Source: a phage. Taken from it: a stretch of 64,000 bases of DNA. The stretch's first letter is position 1. Every line of letters starts with the position of its first letter. The stretch lies in the sequence record PZ386955.1; one strand, given 5' to 3'. Below the pieces are notes generated by a model. The model worked only from the letters and a program-made list of their open reading frames with translations. It was not told the origin of the DNA and did no database searches. The position numbers and the translations under genes are program-made. This document shows, one piece after another, positions 31,908 through 42,787 of the stretch.

Positions 31908-31930
31908 AAAGGGGCGAAAGCCCCTTTATA
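31908..31930 (+). terminator. Rho-independent terminator
   Basis: AAAGGGGC-GAAA-GCCCCTTT hairpin followed by ATAAAA. Confidence 0.55.
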
Positions 31931-33945: not shown

Positions 33946-36765
33946 ATGTATCCTATTCCTTTATTTATGTCAACAACATCAGCTTCAGTAGTAACAGCTA
34001 CATCTATAACCACTTCCTCTATTGGTATTGCAATAGTTGGTAGTAAAAAGCAACTGACATACACAGTTTCACCGGAAGATGGTGCGTTATTTGATATAGC
34101 TTTTTCATCTTCAGATAATACCAAAATGGTTATAGATAATAGTGGTATGATGGAGTTTGTTGCCGAAGGTGGTTTTGATGCAATAATGACAGCTAAAAAT
34201 AATTTAGGTGCTGTCTTAACTGATCAATCTGGTGGTTATGCTTCAGAATTAAGCGTGTACACTGAAAGTCTATCAGCTATGGATGTAGGCACTACTCAAC
34301 AGTTGGTTGCTACAATCAGTCCAGAAGGTGCTAAAGATCTTCCAGACATGGTAATTACGTACACCACAACAGATCCAGAAGTAGCTACTGTAAGCCCTAC
34401 AGGATTAATAACTGCTCTTAAAGATGGTAATTGCCGTATAGGTTGTACTGCAACGTATCAAGGAACAGTGGTGGCCTCTGATAGTTCTTATTTAGGTGTT
34501 AATGCTATTCCTGTCATTTCTAATGTAACAGCCGTGGCAAACAGCTATGGAGACGTTCGTGTTGCTTGGGATGTAGCTGATCCGCTAGATGGTGATACTT
34601 ATACTGTAGAAGTATTAGATTTAAGTAATAATAGTGTCCAGTGGACTACAACAACCACGAATACTTACGCTTACTTTGATATCTCTGACTCTATTCCTCT
34701 TTATGGGTTTGCTCCAACATACCTTAAAATTAGCGTTAAGAGCACCAAAGCAGCAGCCGTTATCTTTAATAACTCAATAGCTACAGATGATTCATTCATT
34801 AAAGAAGTTATTGTCTTTGCTGGACAAGATAACGTAAATGCACACTTTACAGAATTATCTGGTGCAAATAAAGCAGCAATGAGTAGCACAACAGTCCGTA
34901 ATGCATATGCTACGCAACGTGGTTTAGCAAATGCTGAAGTTCTTCCGTTAAATACAGCTTCTGGATCATCAGCAGCAGATAAATATGCTGACGATAAAGC
35001 TGGAACAGGTACACCAGACAACTACTGGTATGATCTGGATAACACAGCAGATGGGCCATGCTTAACTAACTTTATCACTAAAGTCACACCTTATGCAAGT
35101 AAGGTTAAAGCAATTGTTTGGGGACAAGGTGAAAATGATGCTGTATCAGCATCTTCAACTGTTGCAGGTAGGTACAGTAACACTACACGTTACCATGATG
35201 CTACGATAGCTATCTTTGATAAGATGCGTACAATAGTTCCTGCTTCTCAAGCAAAAATTGTTTGGCAGATCCTAGGACGTTCTTATTTATATGGTGTAGA
35301 AGTTAATGGTGTGGATTGGCAGAAGTACAGAAATGTACAAAGAACCATCTCTACAGCACGTGATGATGTTATCATTGGTTCTTGGGTAGATGGTGCTGAA
35401 CGTTACAGTGGCTATGTTTATGAAGAAGGTATTGATGGTCGTATCCATTATGTTTCTTCTGTATACCAAACAGCAGCTACAAAACTTGCTAAATCGGCAG
35501 CAGACGGTACAGACTTAACATCAACGTCACCTGTTTGGGTTGATATGGCTGTTCCAACTGGAGCAACAGCTACTTCCCAATCTAATCAAGATACAATTTT
35601 AGCATGGGATGCTCAAGGCTATAGTAAACACTACTTCCGTAATATTAACGTCTTAACAGCATCTGTATTAACGGAACAAACGCTTAATACGAACAGCTAT
35701 ACGTTTACCTATGCAGATCAAGTAGCACAATATGGTTTTGCAGCAGGAACTACTATATTTGATGTTGCATATTATGACGAAGCAAATGATGTGTTATCTC
35801 CTTTAGTACGTTTTAATGTTAACGTTACAGCAGGAACCGAAGAAGATAAACCTGTCGTGATGGACTATGATTTGACGCAAGAAACTCTCCCATCAGATGT
35901 TAAGGTTAATGGTGGGAACTCTTTTGCTCGTGCTTCTGGAGATAAACTTGTAGCCACTAACACCTTGGTTGCTCCGTTGGAGTATGTTGGTACTACCCCT
36001 GTAGGTAGACGTGTAACAGCTAACACAGCTACACAAATTTTTGTCAACAACGCCTTAACAAGTGCAAGCCCGTGGGTAAAGACCAACTTAACTGTTGCAG
36101 CTTCATCTGATAACTCTCCGGCTGGAACTACTGCTAATGTATTCAAATTAACTCCGACTACAACCTCTAGTAGTCATATCTTAACTGCGACATATACTAA
36201 CGCGTACAACATATCTGCCGGACGTAACTGGTCTGCCTCTGTTTTCTTGAAAGCGAATGGGATTACTAAGGCCAAACTAAGATTAAAAGCAGGAACTGAA
36301 GTTAATGAGGGTACTTTTGATTTAGCAGCAGGTACATTCACAGGAAGTGAAGCTAATATTATATCTATGGGCAACGGTTGGTATCGTGCTATTCTGCATA
36401 AAACAGGGATAGCCAAACAGTCCTCCATAAGTTTTGAAATAATTGCCTTGGATGCAACTGGTGCGGAGATTTTCGCTGGAGATGGTACTAGTAACCTTGC
36501 AGTTTGGTTGCCACAGCTTGAAGGTGCTTCTACAGGAGAAACATCAAAAGCTGGATCGCCTTATGTCTGCACATATCCTGGAAATTTAGGAGGAGTATCC
36601 TTCACTATACCAAGGAACGGACATACTGGTGTGGATGTTTACTATTCCAACGGAGACGTTGTTCGTGACGTATTCTCTGGTACGGCATCTACTTGGACAA
36701 TAAACTACTCCAGCTTGTATGATTGGGGATCAGTCTTTATTACAGGTTTGAAATATTACGACTAA
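33946..36765 (+). CDS. Tail fibre/spike with Ig-like region and SGNH-type esterase-like domain
   Basis: VIVFAGQDNVNAH (GQSN-like block) and KAIVWGQGENDA (W.QGE.D block) in the order seen in SGNH acetylesterases; 939 aa. Confidence 0.5.
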   Translation: MYPIPLFMSTTSASVVTATSITTSSIGIAIVGSKKQLTYTVSPEDGALFDIAFSSSDNTKMVIDNSGMMEFVAEGGFDAIMTAKNNLGAVLTDQSGGYASELSVYTESLSAMDVGTTQQLVATISPEGAKDLPDMVITYTTTDPEVATVSPTGLITALKDGNCRIGCTATYQGTVVASDSSYLGVNAIPVISNVTAVANSYGDVRVAWDVADPLDGDTYTVEVLDLSNNSVQWTTTTTNTYAYFDISDSIPLYGFAPTYLKISVKSTKAAAVIFNNSIATDDSFIKEVIVFAGQDNVNAHFTELSGANKAAMSSTTVRNAYATQRGLANAEVLPLNTASGSSAADKYADDKAGTGTPDNYWYDLDNTADGPCLTNFITKVTPYASKVKAIVWGQGENDAVSASSTVAGRYSNTTRYHDATIAIFDKMRTIVPASQAKIVWQILGRSYLYGVEVNGVDWQKYRNVQRTISTARDDVIIGSWVDGAERYSGYVYEEGIDGRIHYVSSVYQTAATKLAKSAADGTDLTSTSPVWVDMAVPTGATATSQSNQDTILAWDAQGYSKHYFRNINVLTASVLTEQTLNTNSYTFTYADQVAQYGFAAGTTIFDVAYYDEANDVLSPLVRFNVNVTAGTEEDKPVVMDYDLTQETLPSDVKVNGGNSFARASGDKLVATNTLVAPLEYVGTTPVGRRVTANTATQIFVNNALTSASPWVKTNLTVAASSDNSPAGTTANVFKLTPTTTSSSHILTATYTNAYNISAGRNWSASVFLKANGITKAKLRLKAGTEVNEGTFDLAAGTFTGSEANIISMGNGWYRAILHKTGIAKQSSISFEIIALDATGAEIFAGDGTSNLAVWLPQLEGASTGETSKAGSPYVCTYPGNLGGVSFTIPRNGHTGVDVYYSNGDVVRDVFSGTASTWTINYSSLYDWGSVFITGLKYYD

Positions 36766-36770
36766 TAAAA

Positions 36771-36797
36771 AAGGAGCCATTAGGCTCCTTTTCTTTT
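36771..36797. terminator. Bidirectional terminator at the boundary between structural (+) and replication (-) modules
   Basis: GGAGCC-ATTA-GGCTCC hairpin flanked by an A-run upstream and TTTTCTTTT downstream; convergent genes on both sides. Confidence 0.6.
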
Positions 36798-36800
36798 ATC

Positions 36801-37181
36801 TTAATCAGTGAAAATTACACTTACATCTTCTTTAGAAAAGAGTTTATGATCTTCACCTTTTGTCTCAAGAGTTTCATACAGGTTAAGAAGTTCTGAAACA
36901 TCTTTCTCTACCAGTTTCTTCAATGTTGCAATTTTCTGTTTGCGACTCTTAATACGTTCAGCTACAACCTTACGTTGGTATCCAGCAGTACGATAACCTG
37001 AGAAAGTTACACCAGTGAGACTTGCAGTTACAGGATCGTAATGACGTTCAATCTGAAATTTATTAAAAGGTACAGCGTCATCACGAATAATCTTCCCACC
37101 ATTACTTACTTGACGAAGACCAGTAACTTGTTCTAGTCGTGCCATAGAAATCTTTGGAGACAGACCAGAGTCCAGGTTCAT
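36801..37181 (-). CDS. Hypothetical protein
   Basis: Track ORF 36801..37232 overlaps the methyltransferase gene; internal ATG at 37181 starts just after the upstream stop. Confidence 0.4.
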   Translation of the reverse strand: MNLDSGLSPKISMARLEQVTGLRQVSNGGKIIRDDAVPFNKFQIERHYDPVTASLTGVTFSGYRTAGYQRKVVAERIKSRKQKIATLKKLVEKDVSELLNLYETLETKGEDHKLFSKEDVSVIFTD

Positions 37182-37188
37182 ACCATTG

Positions 37189-37920
37189 TTAATCAGTGCT
37201 TTCAGGGTGATTTTGCTGTTCAGTGTACTCATTTAGTCGTTCCTCCGCTTGCTTAAAAATATTTACATCGGCTTCACAGCCTAAGTATTCTCTACCTGTT
37301 AAAAGTGCCGCAACTTGTGTTGTTGCACTTCCAGAGAAGAAGTCTAAGACTACATCTCCTTCGTTGGTGTGTATATTAATAAGGTCACAAAACAAAGTCA
37401 AGTGTTTTTGTGTTGGATGAAAACGATCTGCTCCTTGATAGATAGGATACTCAAACACACCCTTATGGTAGGAAGCATTGAAGGTTGGCTTAGAACCTTT
37501 AACACAAACAATAGCCATTTCTTTAGCGTTACTAAGGTAGTTAACACCACTGTTGATGGGTACAGGGTTTGTTTTAATCCATTCAATAGTACGGAACATA
37601 CGAAAACCAAGCGGTTCAAGGATTTCACGTAGCTCCTGGATCTTCCACATATCATACCAAACTATGCAAGTACCACCTTTTCTAAGCACCCTGTAGGCTT
37701 CTTTGAATACTTCTTTAAAGTAAGGAATATCTACAACATCCCAATCACCAAAGTTGTAAGATACACGGAATCTATCCGTATCTTTTCCAGTAGGCTCTCC
37801 AGACTGAAAATTTGTGTCACGAGAAATAGCATATGGTGGGTCAGTAAGAATCAAATCTACACTATTGCTTTCGAGGGTTTGCAGGTAGTTTAATGCAGTG
37901 TTGTTTACAAATTCGCTCAT
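37189..37920 (-). CDS. DNA methyltransferase (N6-adenine / N4-cytosine type, beta-class motif order), orphan
   Basis: DPPY motif near N-terminus (LILTDPPYAISRD) and AdoMet-binding F.G.G-like motif near C-terminus (VVLDFFSGSATT); no adjacent restriction enzyme gene. Confidence 0.75.
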   Translation of the reverse strand: MSEFVNNTALNYLQTLESNSVDLILTDPPYAISRDTNFQSGEPTGKDTDRFRVSYNFGDWDVVDIPYFKEVFKEAYRVLRKGGTCIVWYDMWKIQELREILEPLGFRMFRTIEWIKTNPVPINSGVNYLSNAKEMAIVCVKGSKPTFNASYHKGVFEYPIYQGADRFHPTQKHLTLFCDLINIHTNEGDVVLDFFSGSATTQVAALLTGREYLGCEADVNIFKQAEERLNEYTEQQNHPESTD

Positions 37921-37938
37921 TATATCTCCTTCAAAGAA

Positions 37939-37958
37939 AAGGAGCCGTTAGGCTCCTT
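37939..37958 (-). terminator. Rho-independent terminator (minus strand) after the SSB-like gene
   Basis: AAGGAGCC-GTTA-GGCTCCTT hairpin; on the minus strand followed by TTTTCTTTG; near-identical to the 36771 hairpin. Confidence 0.55.
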
Positions 37959-37980
37959 ATATTCACACAATATTTAACTA

Positions 37981-38928
37981 TTAGAAACAGTGCAGGAAGT
38001 TTCGACCATACTGCAAACCAATAGGAGCAAATGGGATATCATCATCGAAATCTTGAACAACAGGTTCTGGTTCTTTCGGTGCTGGCTCTTTCTTCTCTAC
38101 TTTTTTAGTTTCTTTCTTAACTTCTTGTACTGGGGTAGACATTCCACGGATAGCAGCAGCTACTTTATCAGACAAAGCAAGAACTTCACGAGCAGCTTCA
38201 ATAATCTCTTCTGCCGTTACAGTTTTACCTGTATGATCACGACAAGCGTTAAGAATTGCGTGTCCAACTGAAGCACCAAGATCATAGTCAGTCACATCAA
38301 CGCCACGATCTTTAGCAATTTCAGCTTTCAGAGTAACAGTTGCAGATTGTACCACACCAGCCAAGTCGAAAGCATCACCTTTCACACCAGCACGTAGAAG
38401 CTCCAGAGCGCCGTTTACAGCGTGTCCTGTTTCAATCCCTACGGTATCACGTTTTTTGTAGTTAGGCTTGCTACCTTCGTTATTAGATGGCTTATTTCCA
38501 CCTTTTGAAGAAGATTGCGCTTGCTGAACACCTTCTGTTGAAAGAACAGTGATTTTACCTTTAGAGGAGTTGTAGTATGTTTTGCCATTCCATTCGGAAG
38601 GTTTAACATCCATAGTTAGTTCTACACCTTTTTCGATAGTAACCCACTTGTCACCATCTTTAACTTGCAGGTTTTCATGTTCTGGATGCAGTTTAACTTC
38701 ACCTAGGCTAACCCAAACACCTTTATCATCAGCACCAGCACCTTTCTCTTTAATAAGCAGAGATGCTTTGTGAGTTGATTCAATTTTCTTATCTGGCTGA
38801 CCTGCAACCTTAATATAAGAGACTTTCATTTCATCAAACTTATCCAGTTTGACATATTCAACGATACCTTCAGCCCAGAATGCTTCTTTTTTAGTACGAC
38901 GGTCGATTTCAGAATTAATTACTGGCAT
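37981..38928 (-). CDS. Putative ssDNA-binding protein with SSB-like acidic DFDDDIPF motif
   Basis: Gly/Ser/Asn/Lys-rich linker, Pro/Glu/Lys-rich segment, then QDFDDDIPF (same as the E. coli SSB C-terminal tip) followed by a further 15 residues. Confidence 0.45.
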   Translation of the reverse strand: MPVINSEIDRRTKKEAFWAEGIVEYVKLDKFDEMKVSYIKVAGQPDKKIESTHKASLLIKEKGAGADDKGVWVSLGEVKLHPEHENLQVKDGDKWVTIEKGVELTMDVKPSEWNGKTYYNSSKGKITVLSTEGVQQAQSSSKGGNKPSNNEGSKPNYKKRDTVGIETGHAVNGALELLRAGVKGDAFDLAGVVQSATVTLKAEIAKDRGVDVTDYDLGASVGHAILNACRDHTGKTVTAEEIIEAAREVLALSDKVAAAIRGMSTPVQEVKKETKKVEKKEPAPKEPEPVVQDFDDDIPFAPIGLQYGRNFLHCF

Positions 38929-38944
38929 AAATTCTCCTCTATAA

Positions 38945-39343
38945 TTACATTACTTTAACACAAAACTCTCGTAAAAGAGTAGCGTCAGTTTCTTCCAACA
39001 GGTATTTACCAAGACCAATACCAAATCCTATTTCACCACTTTCGAAATGGAGGATTTGTATCTTTTCTCCACCAAGGTTAATTACTTTTGCTTTTCCAGG
39101 ATTATCCAAAACATCTCGTATTGTATCCTGTAGTAGCATTAGTTCACGTTTTGTGATAGTGGTTTCAGATATCTCTTTGTTTTCTACTCTCACTGTTAAA
39201 CGATTGTATCCACCAAAGAGACATAGTATTTGAATAAAAAAGGTATTATCTTGAGGTTCAACATCTTTTTTAGTTAGCTCAAGACGATTAGTTTCTCTAC
39301 TATAGAACGTCTCGACTAAGATTTTAGAACGATTATCTGTCAT
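38945..39343 (-). CDS. Hypothetical protein
   Basis: 132-aa ORF between the nucleotidyltransferase and SSB-like genes. Confidence 0.4.
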   Translation of the reverse strand: MTDNRSKILVETFYSRETNRLELTKKDVEPQDNTFFIQILCLFGGYNRLTVRVENKEISETTITKRELMLLQDTIRDVLDNPGKAKVINLGGEKIQILHFESGEIGFGIGLGKYLLEETDATLLREFCVKVM

Positions 39344-39386
39344 TCAAGTCCTCATAATAACACATAATTATAATGTTTGTCAACAC

Positions 39387-39980
39387 TTAAATTTTAAATT
39401 CTTCATTGTTAAATGAATCCAGTGTACGTACTTCTGGCTCTTTGGGAATGAAAACGTCTTTTACAAAGCGGAACATAGGGAAACGTTCTGCCATTTTACG
39501 GACGTGTGCTTCTTTACCTGTGTATCGGTGATTAATAGTACAAATATTAGTTTTCAGTGCAAATTCAAAATCTGGATGATATACATAATTTTGACCATCC
39601 CAGTAACACAAGCAAATAGCTACATCAAAGTTCCATACGATTTCACTGCGTACACCTTCTTCCATGATCATAAAGTTAAACTTAAGATCTTTATAGTATG
39701 CTTCAAATACCCATTTCAAATGTGGTAGTTCGGCATAAGTGTGTTCTGTTTGCTTAGTAAGTTGTTTAACATTACGTGCACCAACACCCAACATCAAAAA
39801 CTTCTCTACTAGCACGAGTGTATTGTGGTTAGGCATACGCAAGTAAATGTCAATGTCTTGTGCAGGTTTCTCTAATCGCCAATCACGTACAGCGCCGCCA
39901 GCTACAATTGCAAACGGATCTACCAGTTGGCACATACGTAATACTTCTAAAGCGCGTACTTTTTGATCTTCAATATTCAT
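39387..39980 (-). CDS. Small nucleotidyltransferase (Pol beta superfamily; GGAVRD ... DIDI motif)
   Basis: IVAGGAVRDWRL...AQDIDIYL matches the hG[GS]-x-DhD signature (CCA-adding / minimal nucleotidyltransferase-like head); only 197 aa. Confidence 0.55.
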   Translation of the reverse strand: MNIEDQKVRALEVLRMCQLVDPFAIVAGGAVRDWRLEKPAQDIDIYLRMPNHNTLVLVEKFLMLGVGARNVKQLTKQTEHTYAELPHLKWVFEAYYKDLKFNFMIMEEGVRSEIVWNFDVAICLCYWDGQNYVYHPDFEFALKTNICTINHRYTGKEAHVRKMAERFPMFRFVKDVFIPKEPEVRTLDSFNNEEFKI

Positions 39981-40117: not shown

Positions 40118-42697
40118 CTAGTGACAACTGGCCCATGAGTTACCAACATCGTAACCAGCAGTGAGAGGTACATTAAGATTGTAATACTCACCAGCTTTAT
40201 TAACAGCAATAGATGCTAATTCTCCAGCACGACTGTAGGCTGTAAACCAACCACCTTTCGGAGATTCATGTACGTTAGCCCAAATCTTGCCAGTACGTTT
40301 CTCTTCCTCTTCTTTCCAGGCATTAACTTTATCCAAACATTCTTTATCAATTTTCTTTTGTTCTTCTGGATCATCAACTTGAGTCCAACCTAAAGATTCT
40401 TTAGAGAACCATTTAAAATGCACCAGATCACGAGTTACTTCAAGCTGTGCTTCATCGTGGTATGCAATCATTTGTTGAACGAATGACTTATTTTTCCAGT
40501 CATCAACAAAAAAGTCAACAGCTAATCCTTCTTCTTCGATAAGATCGTCGTAGATAACCATTGCTCTTTTTGCACAAATAACACCACCACTCTGGAACAG
40601 AGAGTTAAGTATTGCGTGTGCAGATCGTGTAGGTACTTTTCTACCATCAATACCGAGAATGTATTTCTTACCTGTTTTAACCCAAAAATCATGCAGACGT
40701 TCTTTAAGAAGCGCAAGAGGTTTTGCAGCTTCCCAGAAAGCATCGTATACAAGCTGTCCTGTATACATATCACTACCAATAGTTTTTGCTACTTTTGCAG
40801 CTTGAGCACCATAAGTAATACCATACTTAACAGATTTAGCAGGGCTTCGTTCAAACTTACGACCAATAGTATCAGAAATACGTCGAGCCATCATTGTATG
40901 AACATCATTAGGTTTTTCCAACAATAGAGCATTACAATATTCGTGTGGTTCCTGCTCGTACCGCCAACAGTAGTGTGATTCTATTTTTGCCTCAAGAGAA
41001 TCAAAGTCATAACCAATTTGGAAGTATTTTGGAACTTCTACACCAAATAAGTTACGCATTTCATACCCGTACAAAGATGTTACACGTGGGATGTTTGCTA
41101 CTAACCTATGTTTCATACGAGACGTAGCTGCATCACACGTTGCAGCAGGAGTTGGTATACGACCATCAGCCCTTACTGCCGCCAGATACCCTTTATCATA
41201 ATCCTCTTCATCTTCTTCCCAATCAGCACCACCACCTAGAATAGAGTTTCTACGATGTTTATACGTAAGATACTGCACAATCTGCGTAGCATAAGGAAAC
41301 TTTTCACCTAGTGCTTCCAAGTTAGGACAAATATCCTTCTCTTGCCCTTTTGTAAAGGAAGGGTTAGTAAGCACTTTAACACCACGACCTTTAGCTTTAG
41401 CAATACGATCTCTTAGTTTCCATTCCAAAGTTTCTGGTGTGCACTCCAGATGATCACATCTATCCTGGCAGAAGTTAGATGCTAATGTTTGATCAACATA
41501 GTCACGAATAGCTTTCTCCATTTGTGCTTCATCTTTCTTAATCTTAGTGCCAGATTTAAGAGTGATATCTTTATCTTTATATTCAGATGGACTCCAACCT
41601 AAACCAACTAACCAATTTTTAATATGTGTAGTGTCATCTAAAGTAGCAGGTACTGTAGGATCACAAATAGGTTCTTCTGCTGGAATAGGTAGTTTAAACT
41701 CTTTACCTAATGCAAATAACCACCAACCATCTTCTTTTTGTACAAGTTCACCAGAATGTTTCTCTGCAAACTTTATCATGTTACTTGAAGGTTCACCATT
41801 CTTTTTAAACTGTAGTTTAGGTGGAATGAATGATTTCAAATAACCTTTAGTAGCAGGTTTAGGAGGTAGCACAGGTTCTGCCTCTAAACGACATGCTTCC
41901 ATTCGAGCATCCAGATCACGAATATTATCTTCTGCTTGTTTCATATTGAAAGCAAAGCCACGGTGCTCTTGACGTGTAATAATATCAGCTACACGTTGTT
42001 CTAAGTTAAATGGTTCAGACCACTTATTATAATCACCCCACTCTTCCATCAAATAACGGAACACTGCGGTGTTAGCTTTGTTATCGTAAATACAGTAATA
42101 CAGCATATCTGCTGCAAATGTTTTAAATCTTTCAGTTTCAGGAATGTTTTTTCTAAAATCAATTTTAACATCCCCTCCAGCTTTCTTAGATAACTCTGCC
42201 AGACTATGACCACCGAAGCGATCAGGGTTTAGTGTCTTACTTAAGATCATAGTATCACAAATTTCAATGTTACTATTACCCCAAGTATTGTACTTAATAC
42301 TGTAGTTGAGTTTAAAAAATAATTTAATTGCCAGTAAGTCGAAGTTAATGATGTTGTGTCCAACTACTTTGGTAATTTTATAGTTTGAATTACCTTTAAA
42401 TTTACCTGTTCCATTTACAAAATCAGGAAAATCTTTAAGAGGGAAATGGGTATATTCTAAATGCTCATATTCCTCCAGTCGGTATTCATACTTTCCGTCA
42501 GTCTCAATATACGGACGACCATCGAAAAGATATTTATCACCATCATGGAAAGCAATAATCTCTCCAGTATCATGACTTTCGCACACAATACAGTGCATTG
42601 CAAAACTATCTTTTAAACGATATGGACTTGCCAAGTAATCTACACTTTCGTCATTAAGCAAGTTGTTACTTTCAATGTCGAAAGTAAAAGCTCCCAT
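40118..42697 (-). CDS. DNA polymerase, family A, with 3'-5' exonuclease domain
   Basis: Exo I FTFDIESNN; motif A-like DFDSLEAKI; motif B-like RSPAKSVKYGITYGAQ; motif C IAYHDEAQ; 859 aa. Confidence 0.8.
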   Translation of the reverse strand: MGAFTFDIESNNLLNDESVDYLASPYRLKDSFAMHCIVCESHDTGEIIAFHDGDKYLFDGRPYIETDGKYEYRLEEYEHLEYTHFPLKDFPDFVNGTGKFKGNSNYKITKVVGHNIINFDLLAIKLFFKLNYSIKYNTWGNSNIEICDTMILSKTLNPDRFGGHSLAELSKKAGGDVKIDFRKNIPETERFKTFAADMLYYCIYDNKANTAVFRYLMEEWGDYNKWSEPFNLEQRVADIITRQEHRGFAFNMKQAEDNIRDLDARMEACRLEAEPVLPPKPATKGYLKSFIPPKLQFKKNGEPSSNMIKFAEKHSGELVQKEDGWWLFALGKEFKLPIPAEEPICDPTVPATLDDTTHIKNWLVGLGWSPSEYKDKDITLKSGTKIKKDEAQMEKAIRDYVDQTLASNFCQDRCDHLECTPETLEWKLRDRIAKAKGRGVKVLTNPSFTKGQEKDICPNLEALGEKFPYATQIVQYLTYKHRRNSILGGGADWEEDEEDYDKGYLAAVRADGRIPTPAATCDAATSRMKHRLVANIPRVTSLYGYEMRNLFGVEVPKYFQIGYDFDSLEAKIESHYCWRYEQEPHEYCNALLLEKPNDVHTMMARRISDTIGRKFERSPAKSVKYGITYGAQAAKVAKTIGSDMYTGQLVYDAFWEAAKPLALLKERLHDFWVKTGKKYILGIDGRKVPTRSAHAILNSLFQSGGVICAKRAMVIYDDLIEEEGLAVDFFVDDWKNKSFVQQMIAYHDEAQLEVTRDLVHFKWFSKESLGWTQVDDPEEQKKIDKECLDKVNAWKEEEEKRTGKIWANVHESPKGGWFTAYSRAGELASIAVNKAGEYYNLNVPLTAGYDVGNSWASCH

Positions 42698-42787
42698 TCT
42701 CCCTCCTTAAAATATTTCTAAAGTCTTAATTTGTTAATACTGTACCATAAATTAATTGTTTTGTAAAGGGGCTTTCGCCCCTTCTTG

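Follow-up and report, generated by a model that had tools for sequence, protein, structure and literature searches.

A DNA methyltransferase and its putative non-cutting partner between two look-alike terminators of a phi92-like coliphage

We analysed a 64-kb stretch (hereafter the window) of the ~148-kb phage genome in record PZ386955.1, focusing on a two-gene cassette on its minus strand. A gp155-like DNA methyltransferase gene (37189..37920, 243 aa) is followed there by a small gp154-like open reading frame (ORF; 36801..37232, 143 aa), a homologue of gp154 of phage phi92. The pair is flanked by two hairpins, T_up (37939..37958), which stands 3' of an SSB-like gene and upstream of the methyltransferase gene, and T_dn (36769..36792), at which a convergent tail-protein gene ends. 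The 3-kb stretch around the cassette shares 98-99% identity with numerous Escherichia phages in Justusliebigvirus, a genus of the subfamily Stephanstirmvirinae, including phi92, alia, PaulScherrer and BME3, and the phi92 counterparts of this gene block are gp153 to gp159. On balance, we lean towards a model in which the two genes form a terminator-flanked module of a methyltransferase and a non-cutting partner that would act at CATG, be transcribed by read-through of T_up and owe its T_up hairpin to an HNH element.

A sequence-only reading of the window had placed a DPPY-type methyltransferase ORF at 37189-37920 on the minus strand, and we confirmed this, with DPPY at residues 27-30. The product matched PF01555 (N6_N4_Mtase) with an E value of 5.4e-31 and a score of 108.7 bits (gathering threshold 26.7), and positions 1-221 of the 221-position profile were covered by residues 21-227. 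Its motifs stand in permuted order, with the DPPY motif N-terminal and FFSGSATT (194-201; FSGSATT at 195-201) C-terminal, and the gp155-like enzyme is a predicted beta-class (permuted) N6-adenine/N4-cytosine DNA methyltransferase. Its closest solved structure is that of a small H. pylori adenine methyltransferase (5hek, E 9e-29, end-to-end alignment), PADLOC returned an MTase_II match at 1e-46, and the ratio of nonsynonymous to synonymous substitution (dN/dS) is 0.04-0.08. Database records disagree on the enzyme, naming it 'Dam-like', 'type III Mod' or 'site-specific', and these names are no evidence of specificity; a literature search for methylomes of phi92-like or BASEL phages, or for phage CATG methyltransferases, found nothing usable. 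The term orphan, applied in the sequence-only reading, holds in an operational sense, as no intact cognate nuclease is adjacent and the gp154-like product lacks the DHK...N...Cys4 HNH region. We also considered whether gp078, a methyltransferase of phage phAPEC8 (sister genus Phapecoctavirus; positions 60000-109999 analysed) encoded beside the polymerase gene, is a relocated copy, and rejected it as an unrelated NPPF-type enzyme (BLASTP E 0.38). The gene immediately preceding that of the DNA polymerase in phAPEC8 is gp078; at this place the window has just a hairpin.

The small ORF exists at the location first reported, but its start lies more likely at 37232 than at 37181, because a GGAGG ribosome-binding site is found at 37246-37242 on the minus strand, inside the 3' end of the methyltransferase gene, the phi92 annotation uses this start, and residues 8-17 are conserved in the family. 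The ORF overlaps the methyltransferase gene by 44 nt, and this overlap and the GGAGG inside it suggest that the two genes are translationally coupled. The protein, gp154 hereafter, carries a 'hypothetical' label in the phi92-like records consulted, matched nothing in Pfam, NCBIfam or PADLOC, and belongs in PHROGs to phrog_20244, a family of unknown function. A profile search of 1.84 billion representatives recovered a family of ~30 clusters, nearly all of ~100-143 aa and with no member longer than 143 aa; in the ~11 clusters checked, the members were found on phage or virus-like contigs only. Wherever the context is readable, the gene stands directly 3' of a PF01555 methyltransferase gene and usually overlaps it, with the exceptions of phage J2-1 (L012), in which no methyltransferase is annotated, and L080, in which the upstream gene is cut by the contig end. 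Besides the subfamily, the pair was found in at least five unrelated phage contexts (L016; L079/L177; L082/L176; L083; L084), and the gp154-linked methyltransferases form one clade in a tree, beside the ICEA-linked ones.

The gp154 profile hidden Markov model (HMM) also matched longer ORFs in the viral contigs L018-L020. These are PF05315 ICEA proteins (Pfam E 2e-31), and their genes lie directly after homologues of the methyltransferase (52-55% identical) or, in L020, next to one. The reverse HMM search recovered gp154 members as well, with E values of ~1e-5 to 1e-8 in both directions, and at least ten bacterial ICEA ORFs were matched by the gp154 HMM at E 4e-8 to 7e-6. When the two families were aligned with hhalign, a score of 45.7 was obtained (P 1.4e-6, probability 89-90%), compared with 21 for the best of 21 reversed or column-shuffled controls. 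The aligned region spans residues 19-108 of gp154 and 58-152 of ICEA and ends just before the IEIDHKNG motif. The IEIDHKNG...N...Cys4 HNH/zinc part was found in no member of the gp154 family, and the 'DHK' present in gp154 of the window is not conserved among its homologues. A long helix is predicted around residues 83-125, which scored best within two low-confidence models.

The gene order points in the same direction. Among the best 80 bacterial ICEA loci from genome contigs, a set that includes neither H. pylori nor Neisseria, 25 carry a methyltransferase of this type directly upstream, co-oriented and overlapping, and 55 have none within their 2.5-kb flanks; the order of the 25, a methyltransferase gene and then an overlapping gene, is the arrangement of the methyltransferase and gp154. 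ICEA proteins gave no tblastn match in 50,697 phage records with one gammaproteobacterial ICEA query, and one match was obtained in plasmids. Since the relationship is visible with family profiles only, gp154 is best described as a remote homologue of part of the ICEA domain and not as a PF05315 member, and we consider it highly probable from these comparisons that it shares a domain with the ICEA endonucleases and lacks their nuclease. It would be either a truncated relic or a precursor, and the tree does not tell which. A dN/dS of 0.08-0.27 indicates purifying selection, and a conserved family with values of ~0.1-0.3 is not a decaying pseudogene.

NlaIII and IceA1, which we take to be the two characterised members of the ICEA family, have CATG as their site. 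H. pylori IceA1 and Neisseria R.NlaIII are placed in this family as enzymes recognising CATG (PMC13340068, PMC4202330). In the window, CATG is the most depleted of the 256 tetramers, with 83 sites observed and 218.8 expected from a second-order model (observed/expected ratio, O/E, 0.38; z -11.5); the deficit is evenly spread over the window, and no CATG lies within the cassette. CATG ranks first also in the metagenomic relatives L005 (O/E 0.18) and L007 (0.40), in J2-1 (0 observed, 14.3 expected) and in the ICEA contig L019 (0.11), and the pooled bacterial ICEA loci show an O/E of 0.50 at rank 2. By contrast, CATG has an O/E of 0.75 and rank 12 in the 50 kb of phAPEC8, which lacks the module, and an O/E of 0.98 in phage KP13-16. 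We favour CATG, by a modest degree of confidence, as the specificity of the methyltransferase. In phAPEC8 the most depleted tetramer is GTAC (O/E 0.31; 0.82 in the window), and the two genera may each be avoiding the target of their own methyltransferase.

Several points weigh against this account of gp154 and CATG. For gp154, AlphaFold2 reached a pLDDT of 52 from the single sequence and 53 from a 4-sequence alignment, the PF05315 Pfam model matched no family member even at E values up to 10, and an hhalign probability of 90%, not 99%, marks the homology as remote. A search of PDB sequences with an ICEA protein found no solved ICEA structure, and to call the region shared by gp154 and ICEA 'DNA-recognition' is an assumption. 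For CATG, O/E values of 0.6-0.75 also occur in sequences without the module, and the gp154-bearing contigs L016 (O/E 0.84) and L084 (9 observed, 7.1 expected) are little depleted. The 6-bp palindromes AAGCTT (0 observed, 20 expected), CTGCAG (0 and 22) and GGTACC (0 and 14) are avoided too; because many palindromes are avoided, part of the CATG signal may reflect host restriction pressure unrelated to the module. Moreover, full methylation of CATG should leave the phage little need to avoid it. Two further palindromes are nearly absent from the window, GGATCC (0 observed, 8 expected) and CAGCTG (1 and 13), which looks like general restriction-site avoidance.

Some of these points would find a place in an explanation that we regard as unlikely, namely that gp154 is unrelated to restriction enzymes, its profile match being spurious or due to a generic small domain, that the methyltransferase is an ordinary orphan of other specificity, and that the CATG depletion is host-driven. 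The failure of the Pfam ICEA model, the hhalign probability, the moderate CATG depletion where the module is lacking, the avoidance of many 6-mers and record annotations that name a Dam-like enzyme or a type III Mod subunit speak for it. It fits poorly, however, with HMM matches in both directions and controls far under the real score, and with a homologous region found at an equivalent place in the genome, where it overlaps a homologous methyltransferase gene at its 3' end. It would also leave CATG first among 256 tetramers in three cassette-bearing lineages and not in the sister genus.

In the model of a methyltransferase with a non-cutting partner, the module would share ancestry with bacterial type II operons in which the methyltransferase gene is followed by an overlapping ICEA endonuclease gene, and it would have been kept under purifying selection in its present form. 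The methyltransferase would most likely methylate the A of CATG. For its part, gp154 would most likely still bind CATG or the methyltransferase, as an accessory, a site shield or a regulator and not as a nuclease; we favour such a non-cutting accessory because of the ancestry, conservation and coupling described above. More tentatively, gp154-type proteins could represent an unrecognised class of domesticated, catalytically dead restriction-endonuclease derivatives, coupled to their cognate methyltransferase and reading the same site, probably CATG. Such proteins might shield sites from an NlaIII-like enzyme of the host, poison that enzyme through mixed dimers, or target or regulate the methyltransferase, with CATG depletion as a consequence; this possibility is one to which we attach limited weight. 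An anti-restriction role of the module is plausible and is the default idea, and it would be narrow at best. To our knowledge, none of the restriction systems tested in the BASEL study targets CATG. Phi92-like phages are reported to be exceptionally susceptible to the restriction systems tested there (PMC8594841).

Judged against ~10 annotated records and the literature consulted, the reading of the hairpins as terminators and the methyltransferase annotation were already known; what would be new is the link between gp154 and ICEA, its obligate association with a single methyltransferase clade, the depletion of CATG and the derivation of T_up in connection with HNH elements. If true, a restriction-modification system has become, in a virulent phage, a two-protein module of epigenetic or anti-restriction function, and m6A at CATG becomes a specificity prediction for broad-host-range coliphages of therapy collections.

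The module resembles the NlaIII/IceA1-HpyIM type II systems, which act at CATG and combine a PF05315 HNH endonuclease with an adenine methyltransferase, in that a methyltransferase gene precedes an overlapping gene whose product is partly homologous to ICEA, and in that carrier genomes are depleted of CATG. In H. pylori, iceA1 is often truncated while hpyIM remains active (PMC13340068), which resembles the situation of gp154. Unlike these systems, gp154 is without the entire HNH and zinc-finger half, has a predicted helix instead, and forms a conserved family that has so far been found on phage or virus-like contigs; its partner is a PF01555 methyltransferase. Orphan methyltransferases of phages, such as Dam of T4 or T1, are usually read as protection against restriction, according to a review (Murphy et al. 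2013) as cited in PMC12210895. The methyltransferase of the window resembles them in having no active cognate nuclease beside it, but it has an obligate, conserved partner that would derive from a restriction enzyme, and its presumed target site is depleted. The reported high restriction sensitivity of phi92-like phages (PMC8594841) also sets it apart from a protective orphan.

The phylogenetic distribution of the cassette indicates that it was gained. The methyltransferase gene and the small ORF at no less than 95% identity, and the SSB-like gene at no less than 90%, were recovered from the same ~56 Justusliebigvirus records, all of which have both cassette genes. An empty site, in which the SSB-like gene is followed by one hairpin and then by the convergent tail gene, was found in phAPEC8, and likewise with one hairpin in KP13-16 (unclassified Stephanstirmvirinae) and SSE121 (Seunavirus). 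Both genes occupy the identical site in the metagenomic relatives L005, L006, L007-L009 and L175, and a scan of metagenome contigs for more cassette-bearing lineages yielded one phi92-like contig only. The polymerases of L005 and L007 are 82-87% identical to that of the window, compared with 79% for phAPEC8; the other contigs do not contain a complete polymerase gene. Across four deeply diverged lineages the methyltransferase retains 78-86% amino acid identity, compared with 54-74% for SSB, and synonymous sites are saturated, which argues for an old gain and vertical inheritance of the module. By this comparison of gene content, the two-gene unit is a lineage-specific gain of phi92-like coliphages.

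The sequence-only reading had described the unit as a self-contained insertion at the junction of the structural and replication modules. The junction is borne out, since plus-strand tail-fibre genes converge there with minus-strand replication genes, and the two genes are indeed an accessory unit gained at that site. The unit is not self-contained, however, with 20 nt between hairpin and start codon and no promoter found. No transposase, integrase or other recombinase ORF was found in the window's gene list. Direct repeats in all carriers together with a recombinase would mark a mobile cassette, and the hairpins of L005, L007 and L175 are unlike.

The two hairpins were confirmed at 36773-36788 (GGAGCCATTAGGCTCC) and 37941-37956 (GGAGCCGTTAGGCTCC). 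In its extended form, T_dn (AAAAGGAGCC-ATTA-GGCTCCTTTT) has a stem of 10 pairs at 36769-36792 with U tracts on both strands in a terminator scan, and it appears bidirectional because A and U tracts flank both sides. T_up (AAGGAGCC-TAAC-GGCTCCTT, then TTCTTT) has a stem of 8 pairs at 37958-37939, followed on the minus strand by UUUUCUUU, which counts the last two U of the stem, and its U tract is found on the minus strand only. Both hairpins fold more stably than shuffled sequences, at -19.3 kcal/mol (z -5.5) for T_dn on the minus strand and -15.9 (z -5.4) on the plus strand, and -14.3 (z -2.4) and -14.8 (z -4.9), respectively, for T_up. Both hairpins combine a G+C-rich stem-loop with an immediate U tract, and the record of phage Paula (LR865361) annotates both sites as terminators; they are ordinary intrinsic transcription terminators by these features, with termination predicted. 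The pattern GGAGCC-N4-GGCTCC occurs twice in the window, even when one mismatch is allowed, and 0.02 times in shuffled sequences, a statistic that overstates the surprise because the pattern was defined after the sequence had been seen. A simple census counted ~11 terminator-like sites in the window, including a second identical pair, AAGGGGC-GAAA-GCCCCTT at 31909-31927 and 42766-42783. These copies are 10.8 kb apart, with tail-fibre and replication genes between them, the methyltransferase cassette among them, and they bracket no comparable accessory cassette. An identical hairpin pair in the window is less unusual than it first appears. Each of the AAGGGGC hairpins is in the sense of its local operon, one situated between tail-fibre genes, the second a short way upstream of the gene for DNA polymerase.

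We asked how T_dn and T_up, which match at 21 of 22 positions, came to be alike. The sequence-only reading had taken them for the footprint of an insertion and had proposed related genomes as the comparison to make; this comparison ran against the footprint, as the cassette is present without matching flanking hairpins, L005, L007-L009 and L175 having the genes with two unlike hairpins. T_dn is the ancestral terminator of the junction, because its stem type and both flanks match cassette-free genomes: the 5' flank ATAAAAGAAAAGG and the 3' flank TTTTTTATTAGTCGTAATATTTC are common to the single hairpin of phAPEC8, SSE121 and phage Mt1B1_P17, and the downstream flank TTTTTTATTAGTCG... and the stem type are also present at the single hairpin of cassette-free genomes. 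T_up is of a GGGGC type in L005, L007-L009 and L175, quite unlike the T_dn of each, and its GGAGCC-TAAC-GGCTCC form was found in the window's genus and in L006 only.

In the relatives, the GGAGCC stem travels with an endonuclease ORF. In L006, SSB and the hairpin are separated by an HNH or endonuclease VII-like ORF, and L175, whose methyltransferase is 96.7% identical to that of L006 (dS 0.1-0.2) and whose T_dn is nearly alike, has no such ORF and a T_up of the GGGGC type. The same association is seen in a second pair with 99-100% identical SSB and polymerase (SSB 99%): Mt1B1_P17 has the HNH ORF and then GGAGCC-AAAT-GGCTCC, and phAPEC8 has no HNH ORF and the hairpin GGGAACC-TTTGC-GGGTTCCC. The phages nepoznato, Tr1 and phiWec188 also carry the HNH ORF followed by a GGAGCC stem, which is thus present 3' of the ORF at all five HNH-bearing junctions of the subfamily (Mt1B1_P17, nepoznato, Tr1, phiWec188 and L006). 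Furthermore, T_up with its U tract and ribosome-binding site is identical between the window and L006 over 34 of 34 nt, whereas third-codon positions of the adjacent methyltransferase genes are just 51% identical. This identity in the face of saturated synonymous divergence, together with the co-occurrence with HNH ORFs, argues for copying and not for independent origin. In the window, the SSB stop codon and T_up are 22 nt apart (37959..37980); at 15 positions this spacer agrees with the final 22 nt of the HNH ORF in L006, and it may be what is left of such an ORF's 3' end.

The simplest reading of these data, in which we place about even confidence, is that an HNH homing element inserted just after SSB, carrying or co-converting a copy of the junction terminator, and replaced T_up in the window's lineage, from which the HNH ORF would later have been deleted. 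Two points weigh against it: GGAGCC-type junction hairpins also occur in the HNH-less outgroups SSE121 and KP13-16 (GGGAGCC), so that the HNH link is not exclusive, and the 15/22 match of the putative remnant is short and weak by itself. As in free-standing HNH or endonuclease VII homing endonucleases, the relatives have the ORF directly after SSB and with it the GGAGCC hairpin, which would account for the replacement of T_up; the window differs in having no HNH ORF but only the 22-nt stretch resembling its 3' end, and homing and co-conversion are inferred. An ORF annotated as endonuclease VII or HNH directly 3' of SSB is found in several Stephanstirmvirinae and one Mydovirus (L004 5930-6399, L006 ~283-700, L178-L181). 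It has no in-frame ATG in L006, its start in L004 lies inside the 3' end of the SSB gene, and a Pfam search gave no match for it. In the more distant Mydovirus, Raoultella phage Ro1 (L181), an inverted stem, GGCTCCC-ATTT-GGGAGCC, follows the HNH ORF at ~840-865.

The resemblance could instead reflect convergence or chance, two neighbours having drawn the same stem from a small terminator vocabulary of A-tract, GGRGC stem, tetraloop and U-tract. The ~11 terminator-like sites of the window, with their two identical pairs (the second at 31909 and 42766) and their similar stems (GGGGC, GGAGCC, GGAGGC), make such an outcome conceivable, but we think it improbable given the 34-nt identity with L006 across saturated synonymous divergence and the consistent company of the GGAGCC hairpin and the HNH ORF. 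Less probable still is a duplication, by insertion of the cassette or recombination at a single junction terminator, that left the hairpins as the ends of a self-contained mobile unit: although cassette-free genomes have one GG(G)AGCC-type hairpin exactly at the site, the two copies in the window are nearly identical and T_up is common to two deeply diverged carriers, the window and L006, the upstream hairpin in L005, L007-L009 and L175 is a GGGGC-type one unlike its downstream counterpart, the close relatives L175 and L006 differ in it exactly with the absence or presence of the HNH ORF, no transposase, integrase or promoter was found, the same gene pair in other phages has different or no flanking hairpins, and no Justusliebigvirus record shows excision between the repeats. 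On the reading by HNH replacement, terminators that look alike on either side of an accessory gene can result from the traffic of homing endonucleases and not be the scar of the gene's own insertion.

The arrangement can also be set beside two kinds of modular unit. Morons, described by Hendrix and colleagues, are independent promoter-gene-terminator units in phage genomes; the cassette is likewise an extra unit between conserved genes with a terminator at its end, but no promoter of its own was detected and its upstream element is a terminator-like hairpin. PeSLs, motifs in which a promoter and a stem-loop are combined, mediate the shuffling of modules in T4-like phages (PMC2839356, PMC4122927). 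The window resembles these in its repeated short stem-loops, possible recombination points, at the borders of accessory genes, and differs in that no -35/-10 hexamers flank the hairpins, the pair is not conserved among relatives and T_up tracks a homing-endonuclease gene. In L016 (2445-2480), the methyltransferase-gp154 pair is preceded by TTGACA, a 17-nt palindrome (ACGCCCCTTAAGGGGCG) and TATTCT, a PeSL-like arrangement.

With regard to expression, only 20 nt separate T_up from the methyltransferase ATG, and these contain the AAGGAG ribosome-binding site (37926..37931), which lies 7 nt after the hairpin stem with TTCTTTG alone between. A scan for sigma-70-like sites found none in 37921-37980, phage-specific promoter types being outside its scope. 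Since no such site was found in the 20-nt gap or the stretch upstream, read-through of T_up is probable: the module would be transcribed at a reduced level from a promoter near 39354-39383, where the best upstream candidate for a sigma-70-like promoter (TTGACA-18-TATTAT with a TG motif, minus strand) agrees with the consensus at 11 of 12 positions, a consensus match only. The 8-pair stem and interrupted U tract of T_up look weaker than T_dn, and T_up is probably a leaky terminator or a 3'-end stabiliser, so that read-through would yield less methyltransferase than SSB. Against this stands the fact that read-through expression is deduced solely from the lack of a sigma-70-like site. In L016 (TTGACA-17 nt-TATTCT) and L083 (TTGACT-17 nt-TATAAT), sigma-70-like hexamers precede the same gene pair, which makes the lack of a promoter a local feature. 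Two other forms of control were considered and rejected. An RNA switch, in which the 3' arm of T_up (CUCCUU) pairs with the methyltransferase ribosome-binding site, is contradicted by the GGGGC-type hairpins of L005, L007 and L175, which cannot pair in this way; and a promoter overlapping T_up through the extended -10 element TGTGAATAT falls on sequence that closes the HNH ORF in L006 and lacks conservation in both L005 and L007.

The cassette is bordered by a replication block on the minus strand. The SSB-like gene (37981..38928), a homologue of phi92 gp156, is the upstream neighbour of the cassette in the same operon, followed further upstream by a gp157-like gene (38945..39343), a nucleotidyltransferase-like gene (39387..39980) and the DNA polymerase gene (40118..42697, 859 aa). 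In PaulScherrer and phi92 the orthologous genes (3315 nt; L013 13716-17030) are annotated with an intein, which the polymerase of the window lacks. On the other side, the tail-fibre or lateral tail protein gene (33946..36765, plus strand, 939 aa) converges on the cassette and ends at T_dn. This gene is variable among relatives up to ~36721-36752, and in many related genomes similarity to the window starts only there, within the final 15-45 nt of the gene and shortly ahead of T_dn. Relatives have exchanged this tail-fibre gene, the breakpoint adjoining the T_dn terminator.

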